Shown piece by piece: positions 1 to 62,302 of a stretch of 64,000 bases of DNA. Positions within the stretch are counted from its first letter, which is position 1. Each line of letters opens with the position of its first letter. Under the pieces are notes generated by a model. It was not told where the DNA came from. It worked only from the letters and a program-made list of their open reading frames with translations, and ran no database searches. Origin of the DNA: Phycisphaerae bacterium (GTDB lineage Bacteria; Planctomycetota; Phycisphaerae; SM23-33); contig WRDM01000011.1 of the NCBI GenBank assembly GCA_009783465.1, positions 2,911 through 66,910 of the forward strand, read 5' to 3'. The position numbers and the translations under genes are program-made.

Positions 1-519
1 CTCATCCTCTCCGGTCCGCTCGGCGAGCACGGCCTGGCGGTGCTCTGCCAACGCCAAGGCCTCGCCCTGCGAACCGAATTGGCCAGCGACTGCGCCCCAC
101 TGAACGCCCTCTGCCGCGACCTGGTCGCCCAGCTCGGGCCGGCCGTCAAATGCATGCGAGACCCCACGCGGGGCGGACTCGCCGCCGCCGCCGTCGATCT
201 CGCCAACGCCTGCCGATGCGACATCGAACTCGACGAAGCCGCCATCCCCCAACACCGCGCCGCCCGAGCCGCCGCCGACATGCTAGGCCTCGACCTCCTC
301 ACCGTCGCCAACGAAGGAAAACTCCTCGCCGTCGTCTCACCCGCCGCCGCCGAACAGGCCGTGGCGATCCTCCGCGCACACGACCTCGCCCCCCACGCCG
401 CCGTCATCGGCGCCGTCACGCGCCCCAGCGACCAACCCCTCGTCGAACTCCTCACCACCATCGCCAGCCGCCGCGTCGTCCCAATGCCCTACGGGGAAGA
501 ACTGCCGAGAATCTGCTAG
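1..519 (+). CDS. hypE: Hydrogenase maturation protein HypE, C-terminal part (5' end lies outside the window)
   Basis: The frame is open from base 1. The translated protein ends ...VVPMPYGEELPRIC, the conserved C-terminal PRIC cysteine motif of HypE. AIR-synthase-like C-domain residues (DPTRGGLA, VANEGKL) are present. Confidence 0.85.
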   Translation, partial: LILSGPLGEHGLAVLCQRQGLALRTELASDCAPLNALCRDLVAQLGPAVKCMRDPTRGGLAAAAVDLANACRCDIELDEAAIPQHRAARAAADMLGLDLLTVANEGKLLAVVSPAAAEQAVAILRAHDLAPHAAVIGAVTRPSDQPLVELLTTIASRRVVPMPYGEELPRIC

Positions 520-678
520 AGCGGTTCCAGCTTGCGTGGTGGCTGCTGGCCGTCGCTGAGGACGAGCCAGGCCAGGAGGCCGAAGCAGTCGATGCATCGC
601 ATCGGCGATGCAGGCCGACGCCGCCTGGCGACGCCGCAGGCAGGCCAGCAGCCACCACGCAAGCTGGAACCGCTCTAG
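516..678. repeat. Perfect 36-bp inverted repeat (arms 516-551 and 643-678) with a 91-bp spacer; probable hypE 3' hairpin
   Basis: Left arm ctagagcggttccagcttgcgtggtggctgctggcc is the exact reverse complement of 643-678. The spacer holds a small hairpin gcatcgc/gcgatgc (594-611). The hypE stop TAG (517-519) lies inside the left arm. Confidence 0.9.
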
Positions 679-748
679 AGCGGCGGGCACGTCGCGTGTG
701 GTGATCGCAGGGCCATCGCATCTAAATTTCCGCGTGTTTTCGCGAAAA

Positions 749-842
749 GGCTGTGGGCTGTAGGCTGTAGGAGACATGCCTTTGCGACCGATGTTTCGCA
801 AAGGAAAATCAACCTACAGCCCACAGCCTACAGCCTACAGCC
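749..842. repeat. Hairpin repeat with 7-nt periodic arms (cctacag family)
   Basis: Left arm ggctgtgggctgtaggctgtagg (749-771) pairs with right arm cctacagcccacagcctacagcctacagcc (813-842). There is an inner hairpin cctttgcga/tcgcaaagg. The same unit forms the outer arms of the element at 49870-50145. Confidence 0.85.
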
Positions 843-957
843 TAAAAATGGGCCTTTTTCGATGCGATTGCCCTGGCGGTTATCGTAAATTCCCTTGTTC
901 CGGTTGGGCGAAATTTCTACAGTAGGAAACATACTCATTGATTGGGAGAGTTCCCGC

Positions 958-59457: not shown

Positions 59458-59925
59458 TCAGAACAGCCACGCGTCGGTGGCGGTGGCGTTTGATGTTTTG
59501 TTTGTCGTGGCGAGGGCGCGCGTTTTTTGCTCCGTCGTCGTTGAGGTGGCGTCGGGGTTGTCGTCGAACCATCCCTCGTCGTCGGGGTTGTATTCATCCG
59601 CGGGGCCGAGATCTGGTTCGGCCAATGCGGTCGCCGTGGACGTTTCCCGCCATGGCAGCGCCCGCGACGTCGAAGCCGGTGTTTCCTCGACGGTCACCGC
59701 CGCCATCGCCGTCGCGATCGGCCTGGCGGTCGCGGCCGGGGTGTCGCCATAGGCCGGGACGTAATGCCCCAGCCGGGCGGAATGGCCTCGCAGCCGCGGC
59801 GCCTGGCTGCGAAGGAGGTGCTGAAGGTAGTCGTTGAGGTCCACTTCGTCAAACCGGGCCAGGAATTCCGGCAGGGCGGTTCGATTGAAGCTGCGAATTT
59901 CGTCGATCAGTTGCCGCTTGCTCAT
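59458..59925 (-). CDS. Hypothetical protein (conserved-looking N-terminal helix, acidic/low-complexity C-terminus)
   Basis: The ORF sits in the same-strand gene block between fusA and gpmI. ATG at 59925 has gagg upstream, and the alternative ATG is at 59937. I recognised no domain. Confidence 0.45.
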   Translation of the reverse strand: MSKRQLIDEIRSFNRTALPEFLARFDEVDLNDYLQHLLRSQAPRLRGHSARLGHYVPAYGDTPAATARPIATAMAAVTVEETPASTSRALPWRETSTATALAEPDLGPADEYNPDDEGWFDDNPDATSTTTEQKTRALATTNKTSNATATDAWLF

Positions 59926-59987
59926 GGTGTACCTCATGGCGTCGACACGACGCCCTTGAGGCTATCGGCGTGGCGGGGGAAAAAACT

Positions 59988-62078
59988 TTACACGTACTTC
60001 AAAATCGAGTCCGTCACGCTTTGCGGGGCGGGGGCGTAGGAGTGGGGTTCCATGGTGTACTGCGCCCTGCCGGCGGAGATGCTTCGCAGCTGCGTGGAGT
60101 AGCCGAACATTTCCGCCAGCGGCGCGTGGGCGTGGAGGACGCGGATTTCGCCGCGGGTTTCCATTTCGGTGATCTCCGCGCGGCGGGCGTTGAGGTCGCC
60201 CGTCACCGAGCCGAGATAGGGGTCCGGCGTCGTCACCGTCAGCCGCATGATCGGCTCGAGAAACACGGGATTGGCCTTCTGGACGGCCTCGTTGAACGCC
60301 AGCGCCGCCGCCTGCTGGAAGGCCAGATCCGTCGAGTCGGCGGGGTGACTCCTGGCGTCCACGAGCGTCACCTTCACGTTGAGCATCGGATACCCTGCCA
60401 GCGGGCCCGACGTGGCCGCGTCGCGCACGCCCTGTTCCACGGCCGCGATGTACTCCCGCGACAACACGCCGCTCTTGAGTTCGTTGCGGAAGACGATCGT
60501 CTCGGCCGCGTCGGCGCCCTCCTGCGGCGTGTGGGCTTCCACGTTCAGCGTCACCACCGCGAACTGGCCCCGCCCGCCGAGTTGGCGGATGAATTCATGC
60601 TCCACGCGGGCCTGCCCGAGGACGGTCTCCTTGTACGAGACCTTCGGCTTGCCCACGCGGACGTCCAGATGCATGTCGCGCACGAGTTTGTTTTTGATGA
60701 TCTCCAGGTGCAGTTCGCCCATGCCGCTGATGACGGTTTGGCCGGTCTCGCCGTCGAAGCGGAAGCGGAAGCTCGGGTCCTCGCGGCGGAGCGTTTCGAG
60801 GGCGTGCATGAGGGCGTTTTTGTCGGCGTTGGTCCGTGGCTCGATCGACATGGCGATGACCGGCTCGACGAACTCCAGCCGCTCCAGCACAATCGGGTGC
60901 TTGGTGTCGCACAGCGTGTCGCCGGTGATGCTGTCCTTGGCGCCGACGACGGCGACGATTTCGCCCGCGACGGCTTCGTCGATTTTTTCGCGTGTCTTGG
61001 CGTGCATCCGCCAGACGCGCGCGATGTTTTCCTTTTTGTCCTGCGTGCTGTTGAGCACCCGCGCGCCGCTGCTGAGCGTGCCGCTGTAAATGCGGATGAA
61101 GTGCAGATCGCCGTGCTGGTCGGAGAGAATTTTGAAGACCAGCGCGGCAAACGGCTCGGACGCGTCGGGGCGTCGGGTGAGTTCCTTCGTGCCGCGCAGG
61201 CTCTCATGGCCGGTGACGGGTGGGATTTCCAGCGGGCTTGGCAGATAGGCCACCACGGCGTCGAGGAGTTTGGGGATGCCCATGGATTTCAGGGCCGAGC
61301 CGCACAGCACCGGCTGAATCGCGTTGGTACACGTGCCGTTGCGGACGGCGCGGCGGATGTCGTCGGCGGTGATGGCCTCGTGCTGGTCGGCGAGATATTT
61401 TTCCATCATCGCGTCGTCGAATTCCGCGACGGCGTCGAGCAGGTCGTGCCGTGCGATCTCGGCGGCGTCGGCGTACTCGGCCGGGATGGCCTCCTCGCGC
61501 ATCGTCGTGCCGACGTCGGCATGCTCGTAGAAAAACGCCCGGCGCGTGATCAAATCAATCTGCCCGGCGAAGGTTTCGCTCTCGCCCATCGGAATCTGGA
61601 GCAGCACGGGGCGGGCGTGAAGCCGCTGCTGAATCGACGCCACCGAGCCGGCGAAATCCGCGCCGATACGGTCGAGTTTATTGATGAAACACAGCCGTGG
61701 CACGTGATACCGGTCGGCCTGCCGCCAGACGGTCTCCGTCTGCGCCTCCACGCCGCTGACGCTGTCGAAGACCACCACCGCGCCGTCGAGCACGCGCAAA
61801 CTCCGCTCGACCTCGATGGTGAAATCCACGTGGCCGGGCGTGTCGATAAGGTTCACCTGGCAATCGCCCCACAGCAACGTGGTCGCCGCCGACGTGATCG
61901 TGATCCCACGCTGCTGCTCTTCCTCAAGATAGTCCATCACGGCCGTGCCGTCGTGAACCTCGCCGATCTTGTGCGTCCTGCCCGCGAAGTAGAGAATCCG
62001 CTCGGAGACGGTGGTCTTGCCGGCGTCAATGTGGGCGATAATGCCGATATTCCGCAGTTGTTGAAGGTTTTTTGCCAT
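59988..62078 (-). CDS. fusA: Translation elongation factor G
   Basis: ATG at 62078 gives MAKNLQQLRNIGIIAHIDAGKTTVSERIL (G1 motif). DTPGHVDF and NKLD follow, with EF-G domains through to the C-terminus. Confidence 0.95.
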   Translation of the reverse strand: MAKNLQQLRNIGIIAHIDAGKTTVSERILYFAGRTHKIGEVHDGTAVMDYLEEEQQRGITITSAATTLLWGDCQVNLIDTPGHVDFTIEVERSLRVLDGAVVVFDSVSGVEAQTETVWRQADRYHVPRLCFINKLDRIGADFAGSVASIQQRLHARPVLLQIPMGESETFAGQIDLITRRAFFYEHADVGTTMREEAIPAEYADAAEIARHDLLDAVAEFDDAMMEKYLADQHEAITADDIRRAVRNGTCTNAIQPVLCGSALKSMGIPKLLDAVVAYLPSPLEIPPVTGHESLRGTKELTRRPDASEPFAALVFKILSDQHGDLHFIRIYSGTLSSGARVLNSTQDKKENIARVWRMHAKTREKIDEAVAGEIVAVVGAKDSITGDTLCDTKHPIVLERLEFVEPVIAMSIEPRTNADKNALMHALETLRREDPSFRFRFDGETGQTVISGMGELHLEIIKNKLVRDMHLDVRVGKPKVSYKETVLGQARVEHEFIRQLGGRGQFAVVTLNVEAHTPQEGADAAETIVFRNELKSGVLSREYIAAVEQGVRDAATSGPLAGYPMLNVKVTLVDARSHPADSTDLAFQQAAALAFNEAVQKANPVFLEPIMRLTVTTPDPYLGSVTGDLNARRAEITEMETRGEIRVLHAHAPLAEMFGYSTQLRSISAGRAQYTMEPHSYAPAPQSVTDSILKYV

Positions 62079-62156
62079 ACGATTATCGGCCAGATTATAG
62101 TCGCGGGAATTGTTTTTGTTAATCCGCAAATTTGCGGATGTCGTTTTCGTGTGCAC

Positions 62157-62302
62157 GACAGTGAAATCGTACCGTCAATTCCAGGGAATGTTTTCGTTGA
62201 TTCGTTAACTGGTTGACTGGTGAGGTTTCTCGAATTAACGAGTCAACCAGTTAACGAGTCAACGAAAACATTCCCTGGAATTGACTGTACGATTTCACCG
62301 TC
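62157..62302. repeat. 146-bp long hairpin (gttaacg family core, about 44-nt outer arms) between fusA and the upstream oxidoreductase gene
   Basis: gacagtgaaatcgtaccgtcaattccagggaatgttttcgtt pairs with aacgaaaacattccctggaattgactgtacgatttcaccgtc with 2 mismatches. The inner arms are gttaactggttgac/gtcaaccagttaac. The end motif gatttcaccgt also terminates the repeats at 33882 and 34750. Confidence 0.9.

Follow-up and report, generated by a model that had tools for sequence, protein, structure and literature searches.

Here we present an analysis of long hairpin elements with periodic arms in a stretch of 64,000 nucleotides (nt) of Phycisphaerae DNA, which is called the window throughout and which is part of the 67-kb ENA metagenome contig ERZ27257304:k141_3092085. 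Each periodic-arm element is an inverted pair of arrays, with about four tandem 7- or 8-nt units apiece, set around a family-specific inner palindrome. The elements are dispersed, recur across genomes, turn over at orthologous sites, nest in one another, lie close behind stop codons and occur within genes. On balance, we think it somewhat probable that they are several families of non-autonomous, non-coding palindromic dispersed repeats, of the general kind of REP/REPIN, ERIC, RPE and MITE-like sequences, which have built up in this lineage of Phycisphaerae as well as in other bacteria. The original prediction, drawn from the letters of the window, had proposed either selection on structure or a mobilisation analogous to REP/BIME/REPIN systems. 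The second proposal, a dispersed and probably mobile system, is supported by the dispersal of the elements, their copies in more than one phylum, their nesting, the differences between syntenic relatives and the in-frame copies in mnmG.

The cause and function of heptamer repeats, the commonest long simple repeats in prokaryotes, are still debated. Polymerase slippage over a 7-nt contact has been proposed as an origin of such repeats (Mrazek 2007, as summarised in PMC4679880).

Periodic arms and repeat units in the window

Twenty-one long hairpin elements occupy 3.27 kb, or 5.1% of the window, and 14-15 of them, amounting to 2.5 kb (3.9%), have arms built of about four tandem 7- or 8-nt units. 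The 6-7 elements without periodic arms are those at 516, 12896, 35864, 38505 and 53541 and the palindrome at 11124. The predicted total of about 3.9 kb, or about 6%, gives way to the recount above.

Tandem Repeats Finder listed period-7 or period-8 arrays at each coordinate where one had been predicted. With at least 2.8 copies required, and 30 dinucleotide-preserving shuffles as background, the window holds 22 period-7 arrays against a shuffle mean of 0.77 (maximum 3) and seven period-8 arrays against 0.5. All of the period-7 arrays are intergenic, the sole exception being an insertion in mnmG, and intergenic DNA makes up only about 10% of the window. The copy numbers reported for the window and its related loci cluster between 3.4 and 4.7. 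An inverted-repeat search found 59 inverted pairs within 400 nt in the window; among arrays, 96 of 185 stand in complementary pairs within 700 nt, and there are eight strict pairs in the window. Individual elements fold at -32 to -212 kcal/mol in RNAfold, and in most intergenic spacers one long hairpin dominates the fold.

Unit sequences had been said to differ between families. Many different strings do occur, but they are not independent, since most fall into a few series joined by single-base steps: AGCC+NNN (AGCCTAC, AGCCCAC, AGCCACT, AGCCACA, AGCCAGT and the 8-mer AGCCTAAC), AGYGACA, and CGAA+NNN (CGAAATC, CGAAGCA, CGAAACT and others). Units of CGAA+NNN and AGCC+NNN have the form of four constant plus three variable bases, and different units of related series sometimes share one arm.

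This unit form would suit putative protein-binding arrays, whether for a nucleoid-associated protein, a repair protein or a transposase acting on subterminal repeats, or else a cruciform or another non-B DNA structure, and the number of about four units would then be a matter of stoichiometry. The same could be said of the sharp preference for about four units across unrelated unit sequences, found likewise in Xanthomonas, and of the strong conservation of the arm/core junction across phyla described below. We nevertheless regard this explanation as very improbable, given that the many unit sequences per genome are hard to fit to a single binding protein and that no candidate protein was identified; most units, moreover, have no G-quadruplex potential, and the published G-quadruplex rationale does not transfer to them.

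Conserved cores, nesting and position after stop codons

Every pair of copies that had been predicted to share cores or arms was recovered by blastn within the window: 10617 and 49927 (90-92% over 60-69 nt), 7284 and 55283 (90-97%), 5665 and 52102 (94%, on opposite strands), 33585 and 34458 (91% over 58 nt), and 44281 and 47158 (90-94%). Families are also nested in one another, as had been claimed. Nesting is seen at 12783-13290, 44271-44547, 49867-50146, where the apex holds a complete AAATCCG-family element (49924-50078), and 53541-53696, and outside the window at loci L142, L150, L152, L153 and L158. The unpaired half-motifs of several families noticed at 56440-56535 are indeed halves of hairpin families, those at 13320 and 11184.

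A stop codon lies within 56 nt of 18 of the 21 window elements, which start 0-56 nt after it; the predicted closeness to stop codons is real. As also predicted, some arms contain stop codons (at 516, 5628, 55274 and 10769). Among copies flanked on both sides, only 1 of 29 lies between divergent genes.

In-frame copies in mnmG

The gggatcc array at 11067 had been counted with the intergenic repeats; it sits instead in frame within mnmG. The encoded MnmG has 657 amino acids, against about 610-625 for most homologs, and shows an extra segment in the alignment, within which the CGGGATC array (11067-11098) is translated as 11 residues. The gene also ends within a repeat: the right arm of the AAATCCG element at 10617 supplies its final five codons (KNTKS) and its stop codon (10769-10786).

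Homologs of MnmG in related metagenome-assembled genomes (MAGs) range from 608 to 717 amino acids through similar insertions at two permissive sites. The mnmG gene of the sister genome, introduced below, has the same palindrome with a shorter loop, and only CCGAATGCCG where the window has the array. Because just CCGAATGCCG stands at this position in the sister, the window array looks like a local expansion from a pre-existing CCGAATGCCG seed. Elsewhere in its mnmG, the sister genome does carry a CGGGATC array. In a more distant relative from another sample (L184, ENA ERZ27245399), mnmG contains two in-frame hairpins with (AATGCGG)4 arms, at 4428-4565 and 5654-5864, which are translated as CGMRNAECG...IPHSAFRIP and the first of which folds at -68.7 kcal/mol. 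Two further proteins, P0026 and P0005, have different repeat-derived peptides at the same MnmG site.

Anatomy and variation of the AAATCCG family

Copies of the AAATCCG family are ordered as (N)AAAATC, CGAAATC, CGAAGCA, CGAAATC, CGAAACAAAYTCCAAAG, a quasi-periodic CAAA-rich stem and a GC-rich apical hairpin, followed by the mirror image; some have an additional outer GGGAAGCGTT/AACGCTTCCC clamp. The modal arm pair has 4+4 units, and the two arms are often out of step, in length by a single unit or in register. Rare unit variants (CGAAACT, CGAATCT, CGAATAT and CGAAACC) are mirrored in the opposite arm: at the most variable unit this holds for 11 of 38 copies, where 3.9 are expected, a number reached in 0 of 2000 permutations. 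RNAalifold predicted 43 pairs from 21 copies, nine of which are changed on both sides. Most columns of that alignment are more than 90% conserved, so it is the sequence that is conserved in this family, beyond structure alone.

Copies from the sister genome's sample have a median pairwise identity of 77% (range 63-92%). Positional orthologs in the window and the sister are 67% identical, and each is nearer to the paralogs in its own genome (74-75%). Other families interrupt the AAATCCG element at the apex (L142, L150, L152 and L158) or in the right arm (L153 and L154), and in L146 an AAATCCG element is enclosed by AGCCTAC arms, as at 49867 in the window.

Relatives, other metagenomes and other phyla

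The closest MnmG (79% identity) is encoded on a syntenic JGI contig, 3300010167 (loci L002/L126), which represents a sister genome, and a gene identical to the sister mnmG is also found on an ENA contig from the window's own sample. An assembly artefact was considered and excluded, as the ENA and JGI contigs match with 100% identity along 5,711 nt, hairpins included; it is contradicted too by copies in many independent assemblies and MAGs.

Orthologous spacers differ in their elements. After the response-regulator gene, both the window (10617) and the sister (L126) have an AAATCCG element, with four and two units respectively and with different core subtypes. After the T2SSE gene the sister retains only the right arm of 8-nt units, and upstream of mnmG, where other elements stand in the window, it has a hairpin with CCGTCCT arms. 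Past the gene at 54757, CTGTTAGA units occur in both the window (55274, about four per arm) and a relative (L160, one or two).

An exact 23-mer from the arm/core junction of the AAATCCG family was found at 60 metagenome loci; the sister genome's JGI sample accounts for about 38, and the others come from further metagenomes, on contigs with a guanine-plus-cytosine (GC) content of 43-66%. Outside the copies used as seeds, these related loci hold 56 more period-7 or period-8 arrays in 283 kb, with units as in the window. This is 19.8 arrays per 100 kb, as compared with 45 in the window, 5.4 in 117 unrelated GTDB loci and about 2 in shuffles, and so the enrichment extends beyond the window.

GTDB genomes were scanned with a 16-mer of 15 specified bases, which gave 119 loci, most of them chance matches that were reused as background; L054 and L059 are genuine copies, and L068 is one more loosely. 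Clear AAATCCG copies with the 23-mer junction are present in Chthoniobacter and Chthoniobacteraceae MAGs, both of the Verrucomicrobiota. A Calditrichia MAG (L068, 5814-5965) has a similar hairpin with AAATCCC arms, whose core holds the 16-mer GAAACAAATTCCAAAG, a shorter form of the junction motif. Inverted pairs were found only twice among the 117 unrelated GTDB loci, namely this Calditrichia element and a hairpin in Nostoc sp. (L111, 3662-3828) that follows the same design with (TGGGGAC)n...(CCCCAAT)n arms. Viral contigs and plasmids searched for the elements gave no matches.

Periodic-arm hairpins with other units were also observed in other phyla, with (AATGCAG)4.4 at L059 340-426 in the Chthoniobacteraceae MAG and with (GGAGGAT)7 at L179 4063-4157.

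These comparisons bear on the idea that the elements arose in place and are not mobile, as has been proposed for the heptamer arrays of Xanthomonas: heptamers would have slipped beside existing terminator hairpins and been mirrored to the other side, and the similarity between loci would reflect convergence and gene conversion. Orthologous spacers do share the unit type and differ in unit number (CTGTTAGA at 55274/L160; AAATCCG at 10617/L126), much as two Xanthomonas species have arrays of varying length at shared intergenic positions; the mnmG array appears to have expanded from a local seed, and neither a target-site duplication nor a transposase was found in the sequence searched. We still judge an origin in place to be quite unlikely, for it does not readily account for non-repetitive, family-specific cores of 40-100 nt common to unlinked loci, for an identical 23-nt junction and architecture in two phyla and on contigs of 43-66% GC, for complete elements inside other complete elements, or for a CGGGATC unit at different mnmG sites in two relatives.

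RNA- or DNA-level selection

The hairpins might instead be selected RNA structures, that is, bidirectional factor-independent terminators, 3'-end stabilisers or RNase III sites, in which periodic arms would provide register-tolerant stems. Their starts 0-56 nt past stop codons, the filling of convergent spacers and the avoidance of divergent promoter regions would all fit such a role, as would the very stable folds and the mirroring of unit variants between arms above chance. Purifying selection on selfish insertions, however, would give the same promoter avoidance, and many arms are not mirrored (at the most variable unit, mirroring is limited to 11 of 38 copies). Equally stable copies lie within the mnmG open reading frame in several lineages. 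The stems also lack a U-tract: a terminator consensus scan gave no U-tract or terminator-like site at the element ends.

Fifteen window elements in tandem gene contexts were scored relative to both transcription and DNA strand. The mRNA strand has 52 G.U pairs and the antisense strand 55, and the sense strand gives the more stable fold in only 7 of the 15 elements. The excess of G.U pairs (G.T mismatches in DNA) tracks the G-rich + strand, 66 against 41, whatever the direction of the gene. The related loci do have more G.U pairs on the sense strand (123 against 84), but the G-rich strand likewise has more (118 against 89), so that the effect is confounded with GC skew. Because the excess follows the G-rich strand and not transcription, there is no evidence of strand-specific RNA selection, and mutational strand asymmetry explains the G.U data. 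The G.T excess on the + strand, which matches the positive GC skew, suggests that the palindromes keep a record of a mutational bias between replication strands.

Selected RNA structures are in our view an unlikely explanation, and the original prediction of selection on structure, for terminators or RNA stabilisers, is not supported, since in the window G.U pairs do not favour the mRNA strand, U-tracts are lacking and stable folds survive inside an essential open reading frame. Two further comparisons, of the orientation of copies relative to genes and of an apical-loop flip/flop, were discarded, since a palindrome looks the same from either strand and the choice of matched arm is arbitrary.

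Probable dispersal as DNA

If the elements are dispersed palindromic repeats, as we favour, they would spread as DNA, by means of an enzyme or through copy-choice between hairpins, and would survive where they do least harm, at the 3' ends of genes, in existing hairpins and in permissive protein loops. Their 7-nt periodicity may then be a mutational signature of replication slippage in heptamer steps and not a designed feature. Slippage is suggested because the arms differ by whole units or register shifts and because the mnmG array seems to have grown from its CCGAATGCCG seed; the same bias would account for heptamers outnumbering all other long simple repeats in prokaryotes. The arms would stay roughly complementary by descent from palindromic masters, with occasional arm-to-arm correction or weak selection, and any role as a 3'-end hairpin would be secondary.

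Several observations weigh against this interpretation. The flanks of 42 copies have no recurrent direct repeat that would mark a target-site duplication, and the ends of the copies are arrays of variable length with no defined termini. A tblastn search with an approximate E. coli RAYT query, a weak negative, gave no match in about 480 kb, and none of the gene calls from two annotated contig stretches, together about 41 kb, is a transposase. The copies are fairly diverged (median 77%), which fits old, slowly evolving or constrained elements equally well. The conservation of the arm/core junction across phyla goes far beyond that of neutral DNA and could reflect a bound protein instead of mobility. 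Finally, the preference for about four units per arm is unexplained by slippage alone.

A bolder version, which we consider quite improbable, is that the elements form a superfamily of mobile DNA, spread across phyla, that seeks out hairpins and can do without a dedicated transposase. Heptamer arms would here be register-flexible microhomology handles for copy-choice template switching, by which cores would be swapped or nested and new sites seeded. If true, it would explain the excess of heptamer repeats of about four units reported in many bacteria since 1990 and 2007.

Whatever their mode of spread, the elements are an unnoticed load of palindromic repeats in Phycisphaerae, Verrucomicrobiota and probably Calditrichota, which in the window takes up about 5% of the sequence and some half of the DNA between genes. 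They affect MAG assembly and gene calling, since repeats donate C-termini and stop codons and housekeeping proteins gain peptide segments, and they affect searches for structured RNA in these phyla as well. The lineage is also a natural experiment, in which conserved cores allow copies to be traced and in which nesting and in-frame copies record the history of insertion.

Inventory of elements and gene content of the window

The hairpin elements and their arms are collected in Table 1. The window has a GC content of about 64%, with positive GC skew along most of the + strand. Its gene calls are ordinary, comprising housekeeping and pilus/secretion functions (EF-G, iPGM, BacA, biotin synthase, MnmG and T2SSE/T2SSG/PilM). 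No tRNA or tmRNA was found in the window, and Rfam covariance models at the gathering score gave 0 matches across it; at an E-value threshold, 49800-50200 gave just generic, sub-threshold matches to long hairpins (miRNA precursors).

Table 1. Hairpin elements and associated features of the window
Feature	Position	Arms, units and core	dG (kcal/mol)	Remarks
Non-periodic hairpin	516-678	perfect 36-nt arms 516-551, 643-678	-132	TAG stop of upstream open reading frame inside left arm
AGCCTAC/cctacag-arm hairpin	748-844	arms 748-771, 813-844; private core 772-812	-60	
AAATCCG (CGAA+NNN) family copy	3061-3238	arms 3061-3091, 3207-3238		starts 27 nt past stop codon
Unpaired AGCC+NNN half-array	5628-5657	units AGCCACT, AGCCATC, AGCCAGT x2		partner arm nearly lost; first base is the last base (A, 5628) of the upstream gene's TGA stop
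AGYGACA (gacaagy) hairpin	5664-5793	arms 5664-5693, 5765-5793	-65	94% to 52099 copy
8-nt AGCCTAAC/cctaacag-arm hairpin	7284-7393	core GGCTTATG...CATGAGCC		starts 3 nt past stop codon
AAATCCG family copy	10617-10784			between convergent genes; right arm encodes mnmG end
mnmG	10769-12742 (- strand)			in-frame repeat-derived insertion of ~50 amino acids, 11067-11215
In-frame mnmG insertion	11067-11215 (- strand)	CGGGATC array 11067-11098; TTTGCGTTGT-family palindrome 11124-11215		
Triple-nested hairpin, ~500 nt	12783-13290	outer GACCGAGCGGGATTACGCGGATT-family arms ~12783-12817, 13243-13290; middle arms 12896-12924, 13136-13164; inner arms 12965-12997, 13076-13108		
Short hairpin	17408-17451	8-nt GTTRAYNN/gttaacga units		begins one base past stop of T2SSE-like gene
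AGCCACW + AGCGACA-arm element	33617-33844	arms 33616-33646, 33822-33843; long inner palindrome	-124	
Second copy of 33617 family	34490-34718	arms 34490-34513, 34694-34718	-130	
Short non-periodic hairpin	35864-35929	CGCGAATT motifs		
REP-like GGGCGTCTTGCCCGC hairpin	38505-38608			between convergent genes; same family in relatives L002, L129, L133, L153
Nested element	44271-44547	outer 8-nt CACAGAGG units, left array 44288-44303; outer inverted pair 44271-44301/44517-44547; inner arms of AGCCACA units 44309-44338, 44468-44483		
AGCCACT-arm element	47157-47338	arms 47157-47176, 47312-47338		related to 44309
Nested element	49867-50146	outer AGCCTAC arms 49870-49884, 50122-50146; GGCTTATG stem	-186	
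AGYGACA family copy	52099-52226	arms 52099-52125, 52203-52226 (93% inverted pair)		1 nt from stop codon
Nested non-periodic hairpin	53541-53696	perfect 35-nt outer arms; inner TTTGCGTTGT-family palindrome 53576-53659		
Second 8-nt AGCCTAAC-arm copy	55274-55401			occupies whole spacer between two convergent stop codons
Unpaired half-motifs	56440-56535	CAGTGCAAAACGGCAAGCC and others		match halves of hairpin families at 13320 and 11184
Hairpin with 69-nt arms (94%)	62153-62306	inner arm part of 8-nt GTTRAYTG units 62196-62221, 62238-62263	-109	

The REP-like family of 38505-38608, GGGCGTC(C/T)(C/T)GCCC, has tandem units of 22-24 nt in inverted pairs; it is also found after T2SSG in the sister (L002/L126), and in L153 it inserts into AAATCCG elements.

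Some repeats stand upstream of genes. The string GGTTTTTT(T)ACCACAGAGGC is directly upstream of two start codons on the - strand, at 44271-44301 (gene 41311-44256) and 53377-53400 (gene 52228-53376), and 8-nt CACAGAGG units are hence present at the 5' ends of genes too. The motifs GGGCCTAGAATTTCGCG / CGCGAATTT recur upstream of genes at 54615-54635, 35870-35925 and 56510-56535, and they precede the orthologous gene in L160; relatives have kept them, and they may serve as promoters or operators. A stretch of some 60 nt, AAAAAAGTTTTGCGAG...CTCGCAAAACTCTCCTTTAAA (window 13378-13437), is conserved upstream of the Peptidase_C2 gene of L002, where the surrounding intergenic DNA is divergent; having its own inverted repeat, it may be an operator or leader.

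Two other features of the window were noted. An open reading frame of 3,981 amino acids (21615-33560, + strand), 3' of the T2SSE/T2SSG/PilM-like cluster, encodes a secretin-like giant, whose ortholog in the sister genome has 4,258 amino acids with Secretin_N and Secretin matches, an unusual size for the secretin family. The region 5830-6200, upstream of an FlgM-like gene (6199-6480), is AT-rich, with ATGTTAT-type repeats and small hairpins, and is unlike the rest of the window.

Comparison with known systems

The design had been put forward as undescribed, which is too strong a claim: the heptamer arrays of Xanthomonas and the Nostoc locus L111 share it. The elements match a described type of repeat at the level of design, and not at the level of sequence.

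Xanthomonas genomes contain GGGAATC heptamer arrays with a clear preference for four units, which form 70-75 inverted pairs per genome able to fold into stem-loops (Rehm et al. 2015, PMC4692102). The arrays are biased to intergenic DNA, are scarce between divergent open reading frames, recur at shared intergenic positions in two species, where their length varies, and have no known function (Rehm et al. 2015, PMC4692102). Our elements resemble them in having heptamers in arrays of about four units, convergent pairs, an intergenic location with few divergent sites, a high-GC host, and sites that related species share with variable array length. They differ in that the single G-rich unit of Xanthomonas has been read in terms of G-quadruplexes, whereas here there are at least eight unit types, mostly without G-runs; units such as AAATCCG, AGCCACT, AGCCTAC and AGYGACA do not have the G-rich GGGNATC form, and only CGGGATC (11067) resembles the published unit. 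With many units following one design, of about four units per arm in an inverted pair after a stop codon, the G-quadruplex explanation proposed for Xanthomonas is removed. Also unlike Xanthomonas, the elements have family-specific conserved cores, nested families and in-frame intragenic copies, and there are clear copies in a second phylum and a similar hairpin in a third.

The Nostoc hairpin of L111 shares this design with the repeats analysed here, which have a Phycisphaerae host, other units and another GC range. Cyanobacterial STRR sequences, reportedly described by Mazel and colleagues in 1990, are said to consist of characteristic heptanucleotide units repeated in tandem and dispersed through intergenic regions. 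Small dispersed repeats (SDR) of Nostoc, reportedly the subject of work by Elhai and colleagues in 2008, are said to be small hairpin repeats that insert within other repeats. Heptamer arrays of the form GGGGA(C/T)T are documented in Nostoc (Rehm et al. 2015, PMC4692102). The TAACTGA repeats of Beggiatoaceae have a different design, being direct repeats upstream of start codons.

REP and REPIN sequences are comparable in several respects. Like our elements, they are extragenic palindromes at the 3' ends of genes, with several families per genome, clusters or nesting, and in-frame intragenic copies: REPINs insert into or beside other REPINs, REPs are clustered in Planctomycetes-Verrucomicrobia-Chlamydiae (PVC) bacteria, and in-frame REPs inside genes are on record, with the PVC bacterium Opitutus terrae among the hosts. 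REP stems, however, have 5-13 bp, a GTAG or CGTC tag and no tandem-unit structure, whereas the arms here are 28-80 nt of tandem units without a consistent tag. GTAG appears only as part of the AGCCTAC unit, and the hairpin at 38505 is the single REP-like exception.

ERIC sequences are 100-150 nt long, imperfectly palindromic and located in transcribed intergenic regions, with larger variants that arise by internal insertions, and RPE sequences insert in frame into housekeeping genes, adding peptide segments. Both are palindromic repeats of a similar kind to ours, in other hosts and with no sequence relationship, and neither is known to have periodic arms. MITEs and PATEs are likewise small, non-coding and dispersed, with terminal inverted repeats and copies that fold into hairpins, but our elements have no target-site duplication, their termini are simple-sequence arrays of variable length in place of fixed terminal inverted repeats, and no related autonomous insertion sequence was seen in the sequence examined. 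Intrinsic terminators, defined by a short GC-rich stem-loop and a U-tract oriented with transcription, are different again from the hairpins described here.

In the literature searched, the unit strings of these elements are absent and no work pairs Phycisphaerae with palindromic intergenic repeats. Set against the known systems, multiple unit families per genome, conserved cores, nesting and in-frame periodic-arm copies are features not described before, as is the occurrence of such hairpins in Planctomycetota and Verrucomicrobiota and probably in Calditrichota.

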